Of a stretch of 29,509 nucleotides of DNA, positions 1 through 12,017 are shown piece after piece; position 1 is the first letter of the stretch, and each line of letters starts with the position of its first letter. Both the position numbers and the translations under genes were made by a program. Under the pieces are notes generated by a model. It searched no databases, had not been told where the DNA came from, and worked only from the letters and a program-made list of their open reading frames with translations. The DNA comes from a virus (Duplodnaviria; Heunggongvirae; Uroviricota; Caudoviricetes): positions 1 to 29,509 of IMG/VR virus record IMGVR_UViG_2718218398_000001; one strand, given 5' to 3'.

Positions 1-2203
1 GAGCGTTATTTCTTTAATGAATCCCGTGATCCTGTCCAGCGCGAAATGGAGCAGGATAAGCTCATTAGCCGGGCAAAGCTGGTGCATGAGCAGCAGCGTT
101 TTAATCCGGACATGGTCATACTGGCGGACGTTAACGCCCAGCCTTCCCATATCAGCAAGCCGCTGATGCAAACGTATTGAATACTTCAGCAGCCCTGGGC
201 AGGCCAAAGGCTTATTCCCGCTATTTGCGTGAGACGATTAAACCATGTCTGGAACGACTAGAGCATGTACGCGACAGTATCTGCATCTTTCGTTTTATGG
301 CAAAATGAAGGCTGGACGGCCTGCTGATCTTGCCTGAAATGAGTCAGGATCAGGTGAAGCGCCTGTCTACCCTTGTTGCCGGCACATATGAGCATGTGCC
401 TTGATGCAGCTTGTGGTGATTTGTATGCCACCGATGACGTTAAGCCAGAAGAAATCCGCAAGACATGGGAAAGGGTGGCGGCGGAAACCCTGCGTCTGGA
501 TGTCATCCCTCCTGCGTTTGAGCAACTCCGCCGGAAAAGAAACCGCCGTAAACCCGTACCCTATGAACTCATTCCGGGTTCGCTGGCGCGTATGTTGTGC
601 GCCGACTGGTGGTATCGGAAATTATGGAAGATGCGTTGCGAATGGCGGGAAGAGCAGTTGCGTGCTGTTTGCCTGGTCAGCAAAAAAGCATCTCCCTATG
701 TCAGCTATGAAGCCGTGATGCATAAACGTGAGCAGCGCCGTAAGTCGCTGGAGTTTTTCCGTTCTCATGAACTGGTGAACGAAGACGGCGACACGCTGGA
801 TATGGAGGACGTGGTAAACGCCAGTAGTAGCAACCCGGCGCATCGCCGCAATGAGATGATGGCATGTGTTAAAGGTCTGGAGCTTATCGCGGAAATGCGC
901 GGTGACTGCGCCGTTTTCTACACCATCACCTGTCCGTCACGTTTCCATTCCACGCTAAATAACGGCAGGCCCCAACCCGACCTGGACAAATGCGACGGTA
1001 AGACAAAGCAGTGATTATCTGGTCGGCATGTTTGCTGCATTTCGTAAGGCGATGTACAAAGCCGGATTGCGCTGGTATGGCGTGCGGGTGGCTGAGCCGC
1101 ATCATGACGGTACAGTTCACTGGCACCTGTTGTGTTTTATGCGCAAAAAAGATCGCCGCGCCATTACTGCTTTGTTGCGTAAGTTTGCCATTCGTGAAGA
1201 CCGCGAGGAGCTGGGTAATAACACAGGACCACGCTTTAAGTCTGAGCTGATAAACCCGCGCAAAGGTACACCAACAAGCTACATCGCGAAATACATCAGT
1301 AAGAACATTGACGGGCGTGGTCTGGCTGGCGAGATCAGCAAGGAAACGGGTAAATCTCTGCGTGATAACGCTGAATACGTTAATGCCTGGGCGTCTCTGC
1401 ATCGTGTTCAGCAATTCCGCTTCTTTGGCATTCCGGGGCGTCAGGCTTACCGTGAACTGCGATTGCTGGCTGGTCAGGCGGCAAGGCAACAGGGTGACAA
1501 AAAAGCAGGTGCGCCGGTACTGGATAACCCGCGCCTTGATGCCATTCTGGCTGCAGCTGATGCTGGTTGCTTTGCCACCTACATCATGAAGCAGGGCGGC
1601 GTACTGGTTCCCCGTAAATATCACCTCATCAGAACCGCTTATGAAATCAACGAAGAGCCGACCGCCTATGGCGATCACGGTATTCGTATTTATGGCATCT
1701 GGTCACCCATTGCAGAGGGCAAGATCTGCACTCATGCAGTGAAGTGGAAAATGGTCCGTAAAGCCGTTGACGTTCAGGAGGCGGCAGCCGACCAGGGCGC
1801 TTGCGCCCCTTGGACTCGTGGCAATAACTGTCCCCTTGCTGAAAATTTGTACCAACAAGGGAAAGACAAATCAGCTGATGGGGATACCAGAACGGACATT
1901 ACCCGCATGGATGACAAGGAGTTGCACGATTACCTGCACAGTATGAGCAAAAAAGAGCGCCGGGACCTGGCAGCAAGGTTACGCCTGGTTAAACCGAAAC
2001 GGCGTAAAGACTACAAACAGCGAATTACATACCATCAGCGACTGCAGCTCGTCTATGAGCTGAAGTCCAGAGGATTTGATGGTAGCGAGAAAGAGGTCGA
2101 TTTACTCCTTCGCGGCGGCAGTATTCCGTCAGGAGCAGGCTTGCGTATCTTCTATCGGAACCAGCGTTTGTGGGAAGATGATAAGTGGCGGAACCTGTAT
2201 TAA
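1..2203 (+). pseudogene. A: Replication initiation protein gpA (rolling-circle HUH endonuclease), 5' partial and frame-disrupted
   Basis: ORFs 373..1014 and 1028..2203 are collinear with P2 gpA. HUH motif HWHLL at 1118..1132 (within [11 protein letters not shown]). Paired active-site tyrosines [12 protein letters not shown] starting at 1280. Window bases 1..372 appear to continue the same protein in shifting frames. At least one frame break near 1015..1028, probably more upstream. Confidence 0.85.
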
Positions 2204-2295
2204 TTACGCGGATTAACAATTCGTGCTCTTAATAATACCAGGCATATCAGGCTGATGAACGTAAAAAAACGTTTTACATCAGTAAGATTATTATA

Positions 2296-2315
2296 TACTG
2301 TAAATATAAACAGTG
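2296..2315. promoter_or_regulatory. LexA (SOS) box, CTGT-N8-ACAG
   Basis: 20-mer tactgtaaatataaacagtg matches the E. coli LexA consensus taCTGT(at)4ACAGta, with CTGT at 2298..2301 and ACAG at 2310..2313. Lies in AT-rich DNA upstream of a small ORF and a dinI-like gene. Confidence 0.6.
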
Positions 2316-2356
2316 GTTATGCATACAGTATTGCTTGTGGTGTCATAGGAGGAAAG

Positions 2357-2479
2357 ATGCAGGACTATTTTTTGGAGTCTTTGAAGCTCCAGCGCATTGA
2401 TTTTTTTCTTAAGCTTGTAGCGGCTAGTGAGTGTAGTGATGAAGAAAGGGGCTGGCTCTGCAGTGGGTTTCTGAATTGA
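2357..2479 (+). CDS. Hypothetical small protein (40 aa) between the SOS box and dinI-like gene
   Basis: ATG at 2357 preceded by a strong RBS AGGAGG (2349..2354). The six-frame ORF extends to 2255, but that start lies upstream of the LexA box. No recognisable motif. Confidence 0.35.
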   Translation: MQDYFLESLKLQRIDFFLKLVAASECSDEERGWLCSGFLN

Positions 2480-2554
2480 CTGATGAACTCATGGCAAAGA
2501 TCAGAACCCACGAATACAACCGCTCAATGGATGTCATCAGTTGAGGTGACTTTT

Positions 2555-2788
2555 ATGCGCATTGAAATAATGATCGATAAAGAGCAGAAGATTAGCCAGT
2601 CTACCCTGGACGCCCTTGAATCCGAGCTTTACCGCAATCTGCGCCCCCTGTATCCAAAAACGGTAATTCGTATCCGTAAAGGTAGCTCTAACGGTGTGGA
2701 ACTGACCGGACTGCAACTGGATGAAGAAAGAAAACAAGTGATGAAAATTATGCAGAAGGTGTGGGAAGACGACAGCTGGCTGCATTAA
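2555..2788 (+). CDS. dinI: DinI-family protein (DNA-damage-inducible protein I-like)
   Basis: 77-aa product MRIEIMIDKEQ...IDALESELYRNL...KVWEDDSWLH aligns by eye along its length with E. coli DinI (MRIEVTIAK...IDALAGELSRR...ETWESADDWF). RBS GAGGTGA lies upstream of the ATG at 2555. The six-frame ORF 2483..2788 contains it. Confidence 0.8.
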   Translation: MRIEIMIDKEQKISQSTLDALESELYRNLRPLYPKTVIRIRKGSSNGVELTGLQLDEERKQVMKIMQKVWEDDSWLH

Positions 2789-2792
2789 GAAA

Positions 2793-2839
2793 CGTTGCCC
2801 CCAAGAGGATTTATCCTGTTGGGGGGAGTTTGGGCAACG
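2793..2839. terminator. Long imperfect inverted repeat or stem-loop downstream of the dinI-like gene (possible terminator)
   Basis: cgttgccc (2793..2800) pairs with gggcaacg (2832..2839), with inner ccccaa/ttgggg and aggat/atcct pairings. No clean U-tract. Confidence 0.3.
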
Positions 2840-3276
2840 AGTGAAATGAGGTGTAAGGTGGGCGGTCATTTTGATAAGTGATCGTCCACTTTGTGTCAGA
2901 ACCTGATGTTTGTTGTACATTCGGACGAATAGGCGGCGTTGTTTGCTTTAAAAATAAAACAGGAACACTTTGAGAAAGTGAACAGGTGTATTTATTTGTT
3001 GCTGATGAATGAGAGTAACTCTAATTTGGATAATTAGCTTGATAATAGGTCAGACGAAAATAATATTCCAGCACACTTTTGGTCGCAACAGGCATTAGTT
3101 AATTTTAAGTGATAAATTTTTATCCATAAATTAACACTAGTGTGTCATCTAGCGAAACCGAATCGCTTTAACTCATAACTTGAAGTTGAATCAGTGGGGT
3201 AGCAGTAGGCATGCCGGAACTGATAAACTGTGCAGAAGGCTAAACATTCATTCACTCGTGAGATAGTAGCTAAATT

Positions 3277-4143
3277 ATGCAAAGAATTATTCCTGATAAA
3301 AATTGGTGGGAAAAAGAGCGTATTAATCGTAAAGCATCATCAATATGCCCATATGCTAGTTCATACAGATGTCCTCGATACTATCAGAGTGTAGTTTTGC
3401 TCTCAAGCATCAATGTGATAGCTGGTATGGCAACTAGGAAAGAAAAAGAGTTGGGCGAATTTTGGGAAAGAACCACTTTCTCATCTTTATGTGATGAAGA
3501 AGTCCCTACAGTTACTACAAAAGAATATGGCGGCCTTGCATCAGTTAGTAATTTTTGCCCAGAAATATCATTTAGATATTTACACTACTACGCCGATTAT
3601 ATGTGTAAATATGTTGATGAGATAGATCAGGACACTGGCAGGCGTATTGCGGAAAAAGATAATTTAGAAAATGATTGGAAATATACATGGATGTCAGTCA
3701 ATCCTAAATTTTATTTAGATTGCGATGTTTTTGAAAGTGTCAAAAATTTTAATGAAGAATTGGCTAGTGATTACTTAAAAAGATTGCACCCAAATATCGT
3801 TCAGCAAATAGATAGAATGAATAATTGCTTGGATAATAATGATCCGGCAGGTGCACTGCACGCAGCCTCTAATATTTTAGAAACTATGGCTAAGGAAATC
3901 ACTCAAAACCCGAATGTGGCAAATGAGTCATTGGGTGGTTTTTTTAAACAGTTCGAAAAAATGTCAAAATTACCTAAGAATCTTATTGATGCTGTTAAAG
4001 ATATTTATGATTTACGCAACAAATTACCTACTGCTGGACACGGAAGCTTGAACAAGCCTGAATTGACTATGGTAGAAGCTATAACTATTGCGGCAATGAC
4101 AAAGGCGATTTTAGAAATTGAATATCGAAGCAAAGCCATCTAA
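3277..4143 (+). CDS. Hypothetical protein (288 aa) with Cys-rich N-terminus and HEPN/Abi_C-like C-terminal signature
   Basis: Intact ORF in low-GC DNA. N-terminal cysteines (CPYASSYRCPRYY, FCPE, MCKY, LDCD). C-terminal helical region with LRNKLPTAGHG (R at 4015, H at 4039), resembling the RN...HG signature of Abi_C/DUF4145-type HEPN domains. The R-H spacing is longer than canonical Rx4-6H. Confidence 0.5.
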   Translation: MQRIIPDKNWWEKERINRKASSICPYASSYRCPRYYQSVVLLSSINVIAGMATRKEKELGEFWERTTFSSLCDEEVPTVTTKEYGGLASVSNFCPEISFRYLHYYADYMCKYVDEIDQDTGRRIAEKDNLENDWKYTWMSVNPKFYLDCDVFESVKNFNEELASDYLKRLHPNIVQQIDRMNNCLDNNDPAGALHAASNILETMAKEITQNPNVANESLGGFFKQFEKMSKLPKNLIDAVKDIYDLRNKLPTAGHGSLNKPELTMVEAITIAAMTKAILEIEYRSKAI

Positions 4144-4270
4144 CAAACCAAATTATGTGGTTCAAATTCCCGCTACACTTCTGTGTTGCCGCCAGCGTCT
4201 ACTTATCGCTGTGAGTTCAACGGGTGATGATGCGTTAGAGATCTCTGAATCGATTGAAGTCTAAGGTTGT

Positions 4271-4292
4271 CAGGGCTGTAACAGCAGCCCTG
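4271..4292. terminator. Stem-loop between convergent genes (candidate bidirectional terminator)
   Basis: cagggctg (4271..4278), loop taacag, cagccctg (4285..4292). Sits in the 250-bp gap between the 3' ends of 3277..4143 (+) and 4393..5047 (-). Confidence 0.35.
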
Positions 4293-4392
4293 TGTCATGA
4301 ATGGATTGCATATTAATTGACGAAGAACAGACTAATATCATCGATAGCTGTTTTCAAAAATAGACCAATAACAAACTGAGATGTTATCGTAT

Positions 4393-5047
4393 TCATTTCG
4401 ATGATTGATCCAGATGTGTATATAACCATTGAAAGAGTTTTCTAATTTTTGTGATAGTATCTTTTAAATAATTTAAGGAGATTATTATATTATTTTCATT
4501 GTTTAATGAAAGAGTAGGTGTTTTATCAATGATATTTTTTAAGGCTACAGCTGTGCTCATTTTTTTAATGTCTCCATTAGCATGAACTATGCAATTCCTT
4601 ACTTTGTTAAACTCTGTCATGAATTGCCACTCTTGTGACAGGCCAAAGTTTATATCCATTAATTTTGTTAAATATCTTTTTGCTTTGTGGATGCCATCAC
4701 CATTAAAATCGGTTACTGATATATTGGTGTTTACAATCCTTTGACATATATTGCAATAGTCGTTTAGGTTGTGCTCTAAGCATGAGTATAAAGATACCAA
4801 AGCAGATTTATTAAAAAATATTTGGTTGTATGTTAACTAAGAAATCATATTGCTCTGAATAATAGTCTTCTAAGTAATTAATATAATCGTCAGGAGCATT
4901 CTTTTTTTCATCTTCATATGCTTTTTTTAATTCCGCTAAGTCAACTCTGTTTTGGCCGCCTGCTCCTAGGATATATTTTTCGAAATCATCAATCTGCGCT
5001 TCAAGTGAATATCTTGATAGCTGTGCGAAAAGTTTGTATTTACTCAT
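4393..5047 (-). CDS. HEPN-like protein, candidate abortive-infection RNase; split into two ORFs (4811..5047 and 4393..4800) by a 1-nt frame change at an A6/T6 run
   Basis: Minus-strand ORFs of 78 aa and 135 aa are contiguous; the upstream one ends at a TAATAA double stop directly after a T6 run (plus-strand A6 at 4814..4819). Removing one T fuses them into about 215 aa (...NIQPNIF-NKSALVSLYSC...). Canonical HEPN motif R-N-C-I-V-H (Rx4H) encoded at 4582..4599, followed by a predicted helix. Confidence 0.5.
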
Positions 5048-5446
5048 CGGTATGCCATTCCTTTTTAATTATAAACCTTTGGGTTAAAAGGAGCTGAAAA
5101 TAGTAACTCATTATTTTTGTTTGTAAAGGGGGTATTGTTTTTACTAGATCAAGATAAAACAATGGGAATATCCGCTTTTCGCTCACAGCGGACTTTCATC
5201 TTTGTAAACCCGTATGATTAGCTTTTCAGCGGTCATTCAGATACGGATTTACGCTTCCCTTGGCTGTGCATGACTATGACGCATGAGATCGCATGATCGT
5301 TAGAGGATCGTTTTTGCTGAGGCCAGCCAGAACTGGCGTGCTTTTGCTTATGTCGTGCAGGTGCATGAAAACCACTACATAAAGCGGGCAGGCGTGGCGG
5401 GGATACGAGCGCGCGCTTATTACTTTGATAGTACTCGGGTTATAAT

Positions 5447-7129
5447 ATGGATGACTATCTATCTCGGAGAATGTACATGTCATTAGACTATATTAAAGAA
5501 CAGTTGTCAGACTTTATTTCATCTGCAGAACCTGAGGTAATGGCTATTCAGGGTGAGTGGGGGATTGGGAAAACCTATACTTGGAATGCTTTCTTAAAGG
5601 AAAATAAAAATAAGATTGCATTTAATAGATATAGTTACGTCTCTCTTTTTGGTGTTAATTCATTGGACGCATTAAAATACTCCATCTTTGAAAATACAAT
5701 TACGAAAGATTTCATTGGAAACAAACCTAATTTAAAAACAGCAACACAAAATGCAAAGGGGCTTCTTGAATCCTGCACTAGAAAGACCGCTCGTGTGTTA
5801 AAAGATACACCTTTTTTGAAAAATTTCACTACGACACTTGAGTCAATGTCATTTATGTCAATTACTAATGTTATTGTAGTCATAGATGACTTAGAAAGAC
5901 GTGGTAAAAATTTAGAAGTGAAAGATGTCTTAGGGTTGGTTTCTTTATTGAAAGAACAAAAAAATTGTAAGGTGGTTCTTTTACTTAATAACGGGACAAG
6001 TGGTATGGATGACTACTCCACTTATAAAGAAAAGGTTATTGATAGAGAGATTACCTATAATCCTACTCCAGAAGAATGTGCAGTTATAGCATATAAAAAT
6101 AATTCTGATGTTCATAAATTATTAAGCAAATACTCCATTTCCCTGGGTATTAAGAATATTAGGATACTGAAAAAAATAGAGCGGTTTTTGCTAGCCTTGT
6201 TACCTGGCATTAACGTTAATTTTGAAAAAATTGCAAATGAAGTCGCACACTCCTTAACTTTGTATTGTTGGAGTCATTACGCATTTACTCCAGATGGAGA
6301 TGTACCATCATTGGAGTATATTAGAAATATGAGAAATATCTATATGCGTGATGAAAAAGAGGATGGAAAAGAAAAAAAATGGCTTAATACTTTGCTTATA
6401 TATGATTATAAAAAAACAAACGAACTTGATGAAGTCCTTATAGACATGGTAAGGCATGGATATATTGATATGAACAATTTCCAAAGGCAAGTAAGTCTAA
6501 GGAATGATGAACTTATCCGTGATAGTAAGCGAGGTTCACTGTTTGAAGCATGGAAGCTTTTCTATAATTCATTTGAAGATAACCGAAATCAGGTTATTGA
6601 TAATCTATATCAAGCGGTGGTTGGTGGGATAGAGTATGTAACTCCAAGTGACTTGGATAGTGTTGTCGGACTGTATAGAGATTTAGGTGAAAATATTAAA
6701 GCAAGTGAATTAATAAGTAAATTTATTAATTACGGCAATGATGCTCTTAAGGAATATGTTCAATCTATTTACATGAATGTTCATCCTATAAAAGATGCTG
6801 AGTTAAAGTCAAAAATCCAAGATTATTCTACTACTTTAAATCTGGATGGTTCTATAAAGGATGTTCTAATAAAATTATCAAGTCAGAATGGTTGGTCTGA
6901 TAGGCACGAGGAAATATTGGATGCTGCCTCAGAGGATGACTACTATGATTTATTTAAAAAAGTCATTCTTGATGGTGGTGATTCAATAATAGCTACTGCT
7001 CTTAAGTTTGGTGGGTATAGCAATGGTTCAGAAAGAATGAAACGCATCGGAGAAAAAGCGAGAAATGCTTTGATAAGAATTGGAAATGAGTCGAGCATTA
7101 ATAAAATACGTGTTAGACGGTATTTGTAA
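5447..7129 (+). CDS. KAP-family P-loop NTPase (560 aa)
   Basis: Walker A GEWGIGKT (5552..5575). Walker B plus the KAP-characteristic hhhhDDLER/DR motif NVIVVIDDLERR (about 5870..5902). Long alpha-helical C-terminal region. Low-GC codon usage. The true start is more likely ATG 5477 (RBS GGAGA at 5466..5470) than 5447. Confidence 0.7.
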   Translation: MDDYLSRRMYMSLDYIKEQLSDFISSAEPEVMAIQGEWGIGKTYTWNAFLKENKNKIAFNRYSYVSLFGVNSLDALKYSIFENTITKDFIGNKPNLKTATQNAKGLLESCTRKTARVLKDTPFLKNFTTTLESMSFMSITNVIVVIDDLERRGKNLEVKDVLGLVSLLKEQKNCKVVLLLNNGTSGMDDYSTYKEKVIDREITYNPTPEECAVIAYKNNSDVHKLLSKYSISLGIKNIRILKKIERFLLALLPGINVNFEKIANEVAHSLTLYCWSHYAFTPDGDVPSLEYIRNMRNIYMRDEKEDGKEKKWLNTLLIYDYKKTNELDEVLIDMVRHGYIDMNNFQRQVSLRNDELIRDSKRGSLFEAWKLFYNSFEDNRNQVIDNLYQAVVGGIEYVTPSDLDSVVGLYRDLGENIKASELISKFINYGNDALKEYVQSIYMNVHPIKDAELKSKIQDYSTTLNLDGSIKDVLIKLSSQNGWSDRHEEILDAASEDDYYDLFKKVILDGGDSIIATALKFGGYSNGSERMKRIGEKARNALIRIGNESSINKIRVRRYL

Positions 7130-7134
7130 TTTGG

Positions 7135-7152
7135 GGGGGATTTTCATCCCCC
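7135..7152 (+). terminator. Hairpin terminator candidate after the KAP NTPase gene
   Basis: ggggga / ttttca / tccccc stem-loop 6 nt after the stop at 7127..7129, followed by a T-rich stretch (cacattttat). Confidence 0.4.
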
Positions 7153-7163
7153 ACACATTTTAT

Positions 7164-8195
7164 CTAATTCAATGAATAATCTTTGAAGGCTATTATTTTT
7201 TTCTTTAGCCAAATATTAATTTCTACAAGTCTTTTTTGTAAAGGAGTTAACTCATTTCGCACAAAAACGCAACTGGCTTTTTCTATATCCCCAAACCCCC
7301 CAACATTGTTTGGCATTATCCCCATCATCTGCGGCGGCACACGATGCGCCGCCATCATGTCATCCCGACTTACGTTCTTGATGTTAAGAAATTCATCCTT
7401 CGCCGCGACTTCTGACAATGGGATGATCTGAAGCCCGTCTTTTTTGCCGTTAGGCGAGTACATAAACAGGTTGCGGAAGTTGCCTGGACCTTTGGCACTT
7501 TTCATCGCGTTGCGGAGGTTGTTCACATCCTCCTGATTCTGCGCGGCGTCGGTCATGTACATGATGAAGCCTGCATGGCTGCCGTTGATGTAATACTTAC
7601 GGCGGAACAGCGTGGCGGACTCGTTGAGCAGGGCGGATGGAATGGCAGAAAGATAGCCGGGCAGGCCGTAGATCTCCTGGTTGATGTCCGGCTCCATCAG
7701 ATGAAAAATGCTGCCTTTCGTGAACTGATACGGCTGGGTTGTCATACCGTATTGCACAAACCAGTAGGTATCCAGGTCTAACCCACGTCGGGTGTATTTT
7801 GCCAGAGCAGGCTCAAGGGCGATAACTTCACCGAACCGGTTCGTGCGTTTCTCCAGGTAAGCGTTACCAAATACCAGATAGTCCTGCACAAAACGTGAAA
7901 AAGCCTGCTGGCTGAGAAGCGGGTGAGGGATGTAGGTACTGGTCAGAATGTTGCATTTCACCGCAATTGGTGAACTGTGATGCACGGCAGCGCGGAAGGT
8001 TCGCGCCAGTCCGTCAAAACTCACTGGCGGCTCATACCAGCGATCTGTCTGTACGCATTCTACATAGTCCAGCAGTTCGCGGCGGTCCAGAACAGGAACG
8101 GGATCGCCAAAGCTGAATGCTTCGGCTGAAGTCTGGCTTTTGTGCTGAATCTGGTTCGTCGACACAGCGCGGTTCTTCTTACTCTTTCCCATCAA
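7164..8195 (-). CDS. Q: Portal protein gpQ
   Basis: 343-aa product, the same size as P2 gpQ and collinear with it by recall. Lies directly upstream of terminase P on the same strand, with the 4-bp overlap typical of P2 Q/P. The last ~45 codons are encoded in AT-rich DNA. Confidence 0.85.
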   Translation of the reverse strand: MMGKSKKNRAVSTNQIQHKSQTSAEAFSFGDPVPVLDRRELLDYVECVQTDRWYEPPVSFDGLARTFRAAVHHSSPIAVKCNILTSTYIPHPLLSQQAFSRFVQDYLVFGNAYLEKRTNRFGEVIALEPALAKYTRRGLDLDTYWFVQYGMTTQPYQFTKGSIFHLMEPDINQEIYGLPGYLSAIPSALLNESATLFRRKYYINGSHAGFIMYMTDAAQNQEDVNNLRNAMKSAKGPGNFRNLFMYSPNGKKDGLQIIPLSEVAAKDEFLNIKNVSRDDMMAAHRVPPQMMGIMPNNVGGFGDIEKASCVFVRNELTPLQKRLVEINIWLKKKIIAFKDYSLN

Positions 8196-9959
8196 AAAAT
8201 CTCCACAATATTGCTGGTATTGGCGGACTCGCCCTGCAGCGGTTCGTTAAACAGTGCGTGCATTGTTGCCCACGCCAGATCGGCATGGCTGGCTTCTTCG
8301 CTGCGGCTGGCTTCATAGGTCGGGCGGTTGCCGCTGGCGGTGGTGGCGCGACGGATTGCCATAAATGACTGCGCTATGTCGGTGTGTCCGGCGTCAAACT
8401 CCAGACGGCGGTGACTGATAATGTCGTAGGCCTTGAGTACCAGGGCATTTTTAACGTTGGGGTTGTAGACAAACTCCCGGACGGCAGGAAAAAACGCTTT
8501 CACGTTCTCGTAAACCCCGTGACCGACGCCGGTTGAGTCGATACCGATGTATGTCACGTTGTACTGTTCAGTCAGTTTTTTGATGGCGTCAGCCTGGGCG
8601 CGGAAGTCCATCCCGCGCCACTGGTGACGCTCAAGAATGCGGAACTTACCGCCCGGCACGGCTGGCGGTGCCACCACCACGCATCCGGCGCTGTCGCCGT
8701 TCTGCGTACCTTTTGCCGGGTCATAACCGATCCACACTTCGCGCCAGCCAAACGGGCGCAGCGCCAGTGCATGAAAGTCGGTCCAGACTTCCCAGCTGTC
8801 CACCATGCACGCCTGTAGTTCGCTGAGCGGGAACACGGACGCGAGATCGTCCACAAACTCGCACATCAGCAGGTTCTGGTATTCGTCCGGGCTGTATTCC
8901 ATGCGCAACTGGTCAAGGTCGAACAGGTTACAGCCACCGCGCACCGCATCTTCCACGGTGACTATCTGGCGGTATTGCCCGTCAGCGCACAGCAGGCCGG
9001 GGGCCAGATTGCTGTGGGACAGATCAATGTCCACCTTGTCGGCTTTGTTGCGTCCACGGTTGAACAGCGCACCGGACCAGAACGGATAAGCACTGTGGGT
9101 CAGGCTGGATGGTGTGGAAAAAATAGGTCTGCCGCCATTTCTTGTGAATAGCCATACCGGAAGCCACTTTGCGTAGCTCCTGAAATTTCGGTATCCAGAA
9201 ATATTCATCCAGATACAGGTTGCCGTGATAACTCTGGGCCGTGCGGGCATTGGTGCCGAGGAAGTAAAGCGTGGCCCCGTTAGGAAGCACCATCGGATCG
9301 CCTTTCAGTTCCACATCCACTTCTTTGGCGAAGTCGATGATGTACTGCTTAAAGACGTGGGCCTGTGCCTTACTGGCGGAAAGGAAAATCTGGTTACGTC
9401 CGGTAAGCAGGGCGTCAATCAGGGCTTCACGGGCAAAGTAAAAGGTCGCGCCGATCTGGCGTGACTTCAGCAGGTTGCGGATGCGGTTGGTTTTTCCGGC
9501 TTCCCACCAGTGGCGCTGGTAGTTGAACATGGAGGAATGGAAGATTTCTTCCAGCTTCTCAATCTGTTCATCGGTGAAGACATTCTTTTCCGGCTGACGG
9601 CGCGGGCCTTTGTTGCGGTTGGCGACGTTAGGGTTTAAGTCAGCTTCGTTGCCGCCATTGTTAAACTTGCCGATCCGCGCGTGGCGCTCAGACTGGCGCG
9701 CCAGCAGGTCAATCTCTTTGAAATCTTTCCCTTCTTTGTGCTCCTTCATAATGAGCTGGCAGTAGCGTGCGGCGGTGGTGAGCTGCATCTGATCCAGCGG
9801 CCCATAGTCACCCCACTTGTCGCGTTTTTTCCAGCTGTGAACGGTTGCAACTTTCTCGCCCAGCATTTCAGCAATGCGGGCGACGCGGTATCCCTGAAAG
9901 TACAGCAGCATGGCCTGCCGACGGGGATCGAGATCTGCGGGTGTCAGTGTGGTGTTCAT
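8192..9959 (-). pseudogene. P: Terminase large (ATPase) subunit gpP, frame-disrupted
   Basis: Two overlapping minus-strand ORFs (9024..9959 and 8192..9250) together span 1768 bp, about 589 aa, the size of P2 gpP. One frame change in the 9024..9250 overlap. Confidence 0.85.
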
Positions 9960-10005
9960 GGCACAAACCTACAGCCTTGAATGAAGGCTTTCCCCGCCTG
10001 CGGTT

Positions 10006-10023
10006 TGTGTGGTTGTCGGTACA
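10006..10023. promoter_or_regulatory. Ogr/Delta-type late-promoter activator site (TGT-N12-ACA) in the P/O divergent region
   Basis: tgt gtggttgtcggt aca, about 80-95 bp upstream of the O start (10102), in the divergent P-O intergenic region where P2 carries its late promoters. Confidence 0.45.
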
Positions 10024-10101
10024 AATACCGCGCATTGTTTCACTGCCCCCATCACCGCAACCATAAGGCTCCAGTAAGTTTTTTCTAACGGAGCACGGCT
10101 C

Positions 10102-10934
10102 ATGACAGTGAAAGCAAAGCGTTTTCGCATCGGGGTGGAAGGTGCCACCACCGATGGACGCGAAATCCAGCGAGAATGGCTGGAACAGATGGCAGCCAGC
10201 TACAACCCGGCGGTGTATACCGCGCTGATTAACCTTGAGCACATCAAGTCTTATCTGCCGGACAGCACCTTTAACCGCTACGCAAGGTGACGGCGCTGTT
10301 TGCTGAAGAAATCACGGAAGGTCCACTGGCAGGCAAGATGGCGCTGTATGCCGACGTTGAGCCAACGGAGTCCCTGGTGGAGCTGGTGAAAAAAGGCCAG
10401 AAATTATTCACCTCTATGGAAGTCAGCCCGAAGTTCGCTGATACGGGCAAAGCCTACCTGGTTGGCCTGGCTGCCACTGATGACCCTGCCAGTCTGGGCA
10501 CTGAAATGCTGACATTCAGCGCCAGTGCAGCCCATAACCCGCTGGCAAACCGCAAGCAGAACCCCGCCAATCTCTTTACCGCTGCAGAGGAAACGGTGAT
10601 CGAACTGGAAGAAGTCCAGGACGACAAACCGTCCCTGTTTGCCCGTGTCACGGCGCTGTTTACCAAAAAAGAGCAGTCCGATGATGCCCGGTTCTCTGAT
10701 GTGCATAAGGCCGTGGAACTGGTCGCCACTGAACAGCAAAACCTGAGTGCGCGCACCGAAAAATCCCTGTCTGAACAGGAAGAACGCCTGTCTGAGCTGG
10801 AGACTTCCCTGCAGGAGCAGCAAACCGCCTTTAACGAACTGGTGGATAAGCTGAGTCATGAAGACAGCCGCCAGGACTACCGCCAGCGTGCAACAGGCGG
10901 CAACGCCCCCGCTGACACTCTGACCAATTGCTGA
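10102..10934 (+). pseudogene. O: Capsid scaffolding protein gpO, one frame change near 10285
   Basis: ORFs 10102..10290 and 10287..10934. N-terminus FRIGVEGATTDGREI...INLEHIKSYLPD and C-terminus ...SDDARFSDVHKAV...ATGGNAPADTLTNC match P2 gpO. The frame break is consistent with loss of one G in a GG run (RYG). Confidence 0.85.
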
Positions 10935-10950
10935 TGGAGCATAAAACCCA

Positions 10951-12017
10951 ATGAAGAAGAATACCCGTTTTGCTTTTAACGCTTACCTGCAGCAGCTGGC
11001 GCGTCTGAACGGTGTGGCAGTTGAAGAACTGTCCAGCAAGTTCACTGTGGAGCCGTCTGTGCAGCAGACGCTGGAAGACCAGATCCAGCAGTCCGCCGCT
11101 TTCCTGACGCTGATTAACGTCACGCCCAGTGACTGAGCAGTCCGGTCAGCTGCTGGGGCTGGGTGTTGGCAGCACCATTGCCGGAACCACTGATACCACC
11201 GCGAAAGAGCGTGAACCTGTCCGATCCGACGCTGATGGTCGATGTGGAATACAAATGTGAACAGACCAACTTTTGACACGGTGCTGACCTACGCGAAGCT
11301 GGACCTGTGGGCGAAGTTTCAGGATTTCCAGGTGCGTATCCGTGACGGCCATCGTGAAACGTCAGGCACTGGACCGCATCATGATCGGCTTTAAACGGCG
11401 TGAAGCGTGCGAAAACCTCCAACCGTAGTGAAAACCCCGCTGCTGCAGGATGTGAACAAAGGCTGGCTGCAGAAAATCCGTGAGGATGCACCGGATCACG
11501 TCATGGGCAGCACCACCACGGGTGGTGAAACCACACCGGGCGCGGTGAAAGTCGGCAAAGGTGGAGAATATGCCAACCTGGACGCCGTGGTGATGGATGC
11601 TGTCAATGAGCTTATCGACGTGGTCTACCAGGACGATGACGATCTGGTGGTGATTTGCGGTCGTGAGCTGCTGTCTGACAAATATTTCCCGCTGGTCAAC
11701 AAAGAGCAGGAAAACAGTGAAAAACTGGCTGCCGATATGAATCATCAGTCAGAAACGCATGGGTGGCCTGCAGGCCGTGCGTGCGCCGTTCTTCCCGCCG
11801 AATGCGCTGCTGATCACCCCGTCTGGATAACCTGTCCATTTACTGGCAGGAGGACACCCGCCGCCGTTCGGTTATCGACAACCCGAAACGTGACCGGATT
11901 GAAAACTTTGAATCCGTTAACGAAGCCTATGTGGTTGAGGACTACCGCTGCGCAGCACTGGTGGAAAACATCCAGATTGGCGACTTCAGCGCCGCCGCCG
12001 CAGAAGCCGGAGCATAA
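10951..12017 (+). pseudogene. N: Major capsid protein gpN, multiply frame-disrupted
   Basis: N-terminus MKKNTRFAFNAYL...KFTVEPSVQQTL (10951..11136) and a later segment VKVGKGGEYANLDAVVMDAVNELIDVVYQDDDDLVVICGRELLSDKYFPLVNKEQENSEKLAAD match P2 gpN in different frames. At least four frame changes between 11136 and 11880. Stop at 12015..12017. Confidence 0.85.

Follow-up and report, generated by a model that had tools for sequence, protein, structure and literature searches.

A predicted defense gene in a P2-like prophage

The ORF at positions 3277..4143 (plus strand) of the window, that is, the whole 29,509-nucleotide stretch of DNA analyzed here, encodes a 288-aa two-domain protein. This is most likely an AbiJ/SadR-like HEPN defense protein in its known part and novel in its N-terminal domain. 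Our preferred reading, to which we assign a probability of about 0.6, is that of a stand-alone abortive-infection or defense protein of the AbiJ/SadR kind, in which a predicted HEPN RNase effector would be restrained by a new N-terminal domain with four cysteines. If this reading is true, the P2 hotspot carries an unannotated AbiJ/SadR-like RNase defense gene that is missed by current defense finders. An initial annotation of the window, made from the sequence alone, had described the product as an orphan with an HEPN/Abi_C domain, arranged tail-to-tail with a second HEPN-like gene. The domain assignment has held up, whereas the orphan status and the weight placed on the tail-to-tail pairing have not.

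The gene is intact and conserved. It has an ATG start and is uninterrupted up to a stop codon at 4141-4143; in agreement with the intact ORF of the initial annotation, no indels were found relative to E. coli PEC422, whose copy is 99.9% identical. The window is a P2-like prophage, and the gene is located in an island that is bounded on one side by the C-terminal part of the replication endonuclease gpA (1028-2203; Pfam Phage_GPA, 5e-43) and a DinI-like gene (2483-2788), and on the other by the portal gene (7164-8195, minus strand). The GC content of the island is 0.32-0.41, as compared with approximately 0.55 for the phage core, and its position, from DinI to the portal gene, is a known P2 defense hotspot (PMC9122126). 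Three units make up the island: the 288-aa ORF, a convergent HEPN-like gene, and a gene for a 560-aa KAP-family P-loop NTPase (5447-7129, plus strand; Pfam, 1.3e-8; PADLOC candidate PDC-S49, 2e-25; phrog_4740, 8e-145). An AF2 model of the full protein, based on 36 sequences (pLDDT 84.4, pTM 0.64), consists of an alpha+beta N-domain followed by a five-helix C-domain at residues 172-284.

The C-terminal HEPN domain

The C-terminal domain, probably of the Abi_C/AbiJ type, comprises residues 171-288 (3787..4140), and its five helices form the all-alpha up-and-down bundle of the HEPN fold. The HEPN active site has been described as Rx4-6H with a polar residue after the R, plus an upstream Ex3[KR] (PMC3710099). 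In the window protein the upstream element is present as E202-T-M-A-K206 (3880..3894), and the counterpart of the other is R247-N-KLPTAG-H255 (4015..4041), the predicted catalytic R-polar-X6-H (Rx7H). The latter lies within LRNKLPTAGHG, which the initial annotation had noticed near the C-terminus and which corresponds to residues 246-256 (4012-4044). In an alignment of 20 family members with 48-88% identity (alignment A6), R247, H255, E202 and K206 are all invariant, and since R247 and H255 are unchanged in every one of these members, the LRNKLPTAGHG motif is not due to chance. The R-H spacing had been called non-canonical, and correctly so: the separation of R247 and H255 is 7 residues, one above the maximum of the classical Rx4-6H, and it is constant across all full-length homologues. 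H255 is located in the sole low-confidence loop of the AF2 model (residues 253-256). Among 2,815 Abi_C proteins, the spacer of the R-polar-X-H motif ranges from 2 to 6 residues with a mode of 5 (PMC13590631); that of the window protein, within its last 120 residues, is 6, and thus inside the Abi_C range at its upper edge.

The sequence link to Abi_C is recurrent but weak. The Pfam Abi_C model (PF14355) aligns with residues 227-279 at 18.8 bits (E=0.0017), under its gathering threshold of 24 bits, and matches 10 of 36 family members at E<0.1 (best E 0.0017), all of them below threshold. Precomputed PF14355 matches exist for two proteins that are 97% identical to the window protein (P0001 and P0331), and a 98%-identical C-terminal fragment has been named 'abortive infection family protein' by NCBI. 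A more distant protein, P0188, has the same N-domain followed by Abi_C at residues 430-507 (53.8 bits). The family profile reaches P0188 through position 210, into the HEPN helices, while hhalign comparison of the C-domain with P0188 gave a probability of 32% and 38% identity over 39 residues, covering the first two helices only. In a MAFFT alignment with P0188 the ETxxK sequences pair with each other (ETCCK in P0188) and LRN-VHGTGHG is placed opposite LRNKLPTAGHG; relative to RNVHGTGH, the motif loop of the window protein's family has a single-residue insertion. A word-indexed protein search with the C-domain profile returned close relatives and fragments only, with no bridge to the wider Abi_C family. 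PADLOC v2 gave a sole match for the 288-aa protein, to PDC-S32 (E=0.0099, residues 201-268), which is not significant for any system model.

We conclude that the C-domain is a HEPN domain, most probably of the Abi_C/AbiJ type, which lies at the margin of what the Pfam model covers and has a predicted RNase activity. The initial annotation had made the HEPN/Abi_C call and had named a PF14355 search and structure prediction as ways to check it. The Pfam comparison did place Abi_C on residues 227-279, but with a score short of the cut-off; in the structural model the C-domain is a helical bundle of the HEPN fold. The five-helix model together with the invariant Ex3K and R-N-x6-H bear the call out.

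The N-terminal four-cysteine domain

The N-terminal domain (residues 1-166; 3277..3774), a proposed sensor or switch, has an alpha+beta fold and contains C24 (3346), C32 (3370), C94 (3556) and C149 (3721). The model of this region is confident (pLDDT 90.5, pTM 0.83). Residues W10, C24, C32, W63, F93, C94, P95, E96, D114 and C149 are invariant in 127 N-domain sequences having 24-62% identity to the window protein, and E74 and D117 are nearly so. The initial annotation had spoken of a Cys-rich N-terminus. The protein has seven cysteines (residues 24, 32, 72, 94, 110, 149 and 184); the four invariant ones are spread over residues 24-149 and do not form a cluster at the extreme N-terminus. The four invariant cysteines probably bind metal, either zinc or an iron-sulfur cluster, in a putative site.

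The N-domain appears to be both undescribed and widespread, and the main interest of the protein lies there. Nothing among the Pfam, NCBIfam, PADLOC and PHROGs models matched it, and the Pfam AbiJ_NTD models matched neither the window protein nor 150 N-domain proteins. Profiles of the full-length protein and of the N-domain found no PDB chain sequence even at E<=10, and a BFVD fold search with the N-domain model gave no match at E<=0.001. In the literature, searched with WP accessions, PDC names and domain keywords, neither the family nor the N-domain was found to have been described. When ten N-domain proteins of 342-378 aa were run through PADLOC, no model covered the N-domain and nine of the ten had no match at all; in the fusion relative P0108, the sole case with per-residue coordinates, the match falls on the TIR part and not on the N-domain.

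A profile search run exhaustively over 1.84 billion representatives identified 654 clusters (at 50% identity) with E<=1e-3, of which 551 have E<=1e-10. Nearly all of the 654 match profile positions 1 to approximately 160 only, and the domain is nearly always placed at the N-terminus. Among the best 150 of the 654 representatives, the C-terminal partners include TIR_2 (19), TIR (11) and CAP12/Pycsar TIR (5), followed by DpnII-MboI REase (3), PLD (2) and HTH_17 (2), with one case each of a protein kinase with TPR, GGDEF, Schlafen AlbA_2, SEFIR and Abi_C. Many other N-domain proteins consist of the domain alone or of the domain plus a tail of 20-80 residues. In 16 of 54 the tail is hydrophobic enough for a transmembrane helix, and many of the others are amphipathic with a common motif; such tails may represent a minimal membrane-acting effector. 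Judged from these matches, the N-domain is a module in its own right that is combined with a wide variety of effectors. If the preferred reading is right, it would give access to hundreds of unannotated proteins in which this module is combined with most of the classical abortive-infection effectors, and one sensor with many effectors would make a ready comparative series for how effectors are switched on. Knowledge of what the N-domain senses, and of whether its four cysteines hold zinc or an iron-sulfur cluster, would then extend bacterial immunity by a new type of sensor.

A broader proposal is that the domain of about 165 aa represents a new fold with a four-cysteine metal site, which would serve as the phage-sensing switch, or the switch for trigger-dependent assembly, of a large and so far unrecognized family of single-protein immune receptors (more than 650 clusters in many bacterial phyla), plugged into HEPN, TIR, SEFIR, REase, PLD, kinase, membrane-helix and amphipathic effectors. 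We regard this as tentative, with the odds somewhat against it.

Two features of the wider N-domain set should be mentioned. The amphipathic tail is approximately 30 aa long (for example in P0104, P0152 and P0177; among P0069-P0212) and follows the pattern (E)LKPxxxG(I/V)x(L/I)(N/D)(L/V)Kx(L/I)..R(L)xxWW(L)RR, also written ELKPxxxGIxLNLKxLxxRLxxWWLRR. Proteins P0070, P0077, P0082, P0086, P0089, P0091, P0095, P0098 and P0118 (342-378 aa) end in some 200 aa for which PADLOC gave no match, and these C-terminal regions may be further unrecognized effector domains; the Pfam scan covered the N-domain proteins in aggregate.

Activation is probably by self-association. HEPN, TIR, PLD and REase effectors and membrane tails act as dimers or oligomers. 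According to the preferred AbiJ/SadR-like reading, the N-domain would keep the HEPN domain inactive until an infection cue arrives. It would either detect this cue or drive a cue-dependent self-association that brings two HEPN domains together. The C-terminal HEPN domain would be the effector, a metal-independent ribonuclease using R247, N248, H255 and E202/K206, and once active it would break down the RNA of both cell and phage and halt phage growth, which is the predicted anti-phage phenotype of the 288-aa protein.

Distribution and genomic context

A search of 5.8 billion proteins found 63 homologues, most of them full length, with 42-97% identity. All are named hypothetical and come from Gammaproteobacteria, in the genera Escherichia, Salmonella, Serratia, Hafnia, Pectobacterium, Vreelandella, Shewanella, Vibrio, Pseudomonas and Methylophaga. 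With these homologues and the 654 clusters that share its N-domain, the protein can no longer be called an orphan. No match was obtained when it was compared by tblastn with 50,697 phage records.

The gene was found in 17 of 5,426 complete E. coli genomes. In eight it occupies the P2 hotspot together with an intact 217-aa convergent gene, and the third module of the hotspot varies, being the LPO_1073/Vpar_1526 family or Septu PtuAB in place of the KAP NTPase of the window. A single-gene KAP system, 'Reve', has been validated in P4 satellites (PMC13586616). In eight others (EC261 and seven more; L019, 4501-5367) a 97%-identical copy is located in a lambdoid prophage and adjoins a zeta-toxin family gene. 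These copies have an in-frame stop where E115 of the conserved DEID motif should be, and RefSeq calls two hypothetical proteins; the stop at codon 115 in eight E. coli genomes indicates that the gene is dispensable. In the remaining genome, NCTC9064, the gene (82% DNA identity) lies between Lamassu LmuA/LmuB and Gabija GajA/GajB.

The more divergent homologues are also placed in mobile or defense-like surroundings. In Serratia plymuthica the gene is again in the P2 hotspot, where the variable module is GAPS4 or SIR2-STAND; in Pseudomonas it is flanked by a NACHT gene and a KAP/PDC-S20 gene, in Vibrio it adjoins DUF2971/PDC-S31 and ParDE, and in Shewanella a resolvase is near. Short N-domain proteins adjoin a trypsin-like protease gene or Abi_C and HNH genes. 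The gene thus recurs in defense hotspots, a case of guilt by association that covers about ten loci. A search of six-frame translations of the 29.5-kb window and 23 related loci with the N-domain HMM detected one copy of the domain per locus and no second. Since there is also no conserved partner gene, the gene moves, and presumably works, alone.

A DUF2971 gene is found on the same strand upstream of the N-domain gene, directly so in Vibrio (L010-L012) and one gene away in metagenome loci (L013-L016); the PDC-S31 score for the DUF2971 gene at 3583-4410 of L013 is 1e-43. This recurrence in two unrelated lineages could be a coincidental stacking of defense candidates or a functional link.

Comparison with known systems

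SadR, an Abi_C protein of 266 aa, is a ssRNA RNase with roles in anti-phage and anti-plasmid defense, both of which need the R, N and H of its RNEYGDAH sequence (PMC13590631). The window protein resembles SadR and AbiJ (Abi-859) in size (288 aa, as against 266-282 aa) and in its Abi_C-type C-terminal HEPN domain with R-N-x..-H-G and an upstream Ex3K (PMC13590631; PMC3710099). It is likewise encoded by a single gene on mobile elements or in defense islands, and the N-terminal half is the variable one. It differs from them in its spacer, X6 rather than the usual X5, in an Abi_C score under the cut-off, and in an N-domain that has no Pfam match and lies outside the recognized types (AbiJ-NTD3, 4, 5 and Sdh5). 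The five NTD classes of the SadR study do not include it (PMC13590631).

The AbiJ-NTDs are N-terminal domains common to AbiJ-HEPN, TIR, REase, HKD/PLD and kinase proteins, and have been proposed as sensors of phage components, with killing left to the C-domain (Anantharaman et al. 2013, PMC3710099). Like the AbiJ-NTD1-5 class, the window-type N-domain is an alpha+beta domain fused to AbiJ-HEPN, TIR, REase, HKD/PLD and kinase domains. It differs in its four invariant cysteines, which are unmentioned for any AbiJ-NTD, and in matching none of the AbiJ_NTD models of Pfam, a set from which NTD1 and NTD2 may be absent. It also differs in occurring with transmembrane or amphipathic tails, SEFIR, CAP12-TIR and GGDEF. 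The HEPN-T protein AF0298 (PDB 2hsb) and the HEPN/MNT toxins (5yep, 7ae2) have only 8-15% sequence identity to the window protein and, unlike it, consist of a single domain and have a nucleotidyltransferase antitoxin as partner; no NTase domain was found among the neighbors of the gene (the DinI-like gene, the HEPN-like 217-aa gene and the KAP NTPase).

Alternative explanations and the convergent gene

The roles of the two domains might be reversed, with a metal-dependent enzyme or toxin activity in the N-domain and a HEPN domain that serves as a non-catalytic appendage for regulation or ligand binding. Indeed, no C-terminal partner is as conserved as the N-domain or nearly as widespread, its frequent occurrence alone or with a short tail would fit an enzyme, and in addition to the four cysteines it has the acidic residues E96 and D114, which are invariant, and E74 and D117, which are nearly so. 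The off-canon Rx7H spacing points the same way, and HEPN domains that lack catalytic activity have been described, such as MtlR and the NT-associated HEPN (PMC3710099). However, a dead HEPN domain would not be expected to keep R247, H255, E202 and K206 invariant, no known enzyme matches the fold of the N-domain, and the C-terminal partners are nearly all recognized effectors (TIR, REase, PLD, HEPN, transmembrane), which is the usual pattern of a constant sensor with swappable effectors. We therefore consider this explanation unlikely. An adaptor role for the N-domain, of the EAD type, in which the HEPN effector would be recruited by homotypic interaction to a separate core sensor such as a KAP or STAND NTPase, is in our view very improbable. 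The N-domain resembles EADs in being an N-terminal, non-enzymatic-looking domain on varied effectors (PMC7159879), and KAP NTPase genes are nearby in the window and in Pseudomonas. Against this, neither the window nor the 23 related loci hold a second copy of the domain, the KAP gene is swapped for unrelated modules in the sister hotspots, and EADs are small and mostly all-alpha (PMC7159879), whereas the N-domain is alpha+beta, approximately 165 aa long and has four cysteines.

It could also be supposed that the 288-aa protein and its convergent 217-aa HEPN-like neighbor form one two-gene system, either a paired-HEPN or a toxin/antitoxin-like arrangement. In the window the neighbor is read as two ORFs on the minus strand, of 135 aa (4393-4800) and 78 aa (4811-5047). 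The initial annotation was right that the HEPN-like gene is convergent, but the ORF at 4393-4800 accounts for no more than its distal part. Relatives carry an uninterrupted 217-aa gene (WP_000049685, WP_001404037), which is split here at about 4813 by a single additional base within an A/T homopolymer (T6 rather than T5 on the coding strand). The canonical RNCIVH motif and a PADLOC RTasHEPN match (E about 4e-6 to 1e-5) speak for a pair, as does the retention of both genes in the eight E. coli P2 hotspots while the third module changes; comparison of the 217-aa sequence with PDB chains gave no match. However, the eight genomes share one block of 98.8-99.6% identity and so count as one event. 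The neighbor is absent from the other nine E. coli genomes, in the lambdoid prophage as well as in the Lamassu/Gabija island, and from the surroundings of the homologues in Shewanella, Pseudomonas, Serratia and Vibrio; Serratia does have a convergent ORF there, which is of no kinship to the neighbor and seems spurious. The convergent orientation implies separate transcripts, and in the window the neighbor reads as frameshifted, the 288-aa ORF being intact. The two-gene system is thus quite improbable. Apparently frameshifted here, and missing from 9 of the 17 gene-bearing E. coli genomes, the neighbor is not an obligatory partner, and the weight that had been placed on two tail-to-tail HEPN genes is not sustained by its distribution in E. 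coli and other genera. The stacking of two modules in one hotspot is the best explanation for the tail-to-tail pair, in keeping with the preferred reading of the 288-aa protein as a stand-alone AbiJ/SadR-like defense protein.

Convergent ORFs near the homologues in Serratia and in the lambdoid prophages were considered as possible kin of the 217-aa neighbor and rejected as unrelated; the Serratia ORF looks non-coding. Comparison of positions 1-12000 of the window with the P2-like prophage of PEC422 revealed about 20 small indels over approximately 10 kb, mostly 1-bp insertions, including those at 968 (gpA), 9118 (terminase gene) and 11125-11817 (further downstream). This indel load suggests an error-prone assembly or a decaying prophage and bears on any frameshift in the window; that of the neighbor may accordingly be an assembly error or a sign of prophage decay. 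Midway between the convergent genes, at 4271-4292, there is a perfect 8-bp inverted repeat, CAGGGCTG-TAACAG-CAGCCCTG, which was not called by the terminator scan because a T-run is absent; it could serve as a bidirectional terminator.
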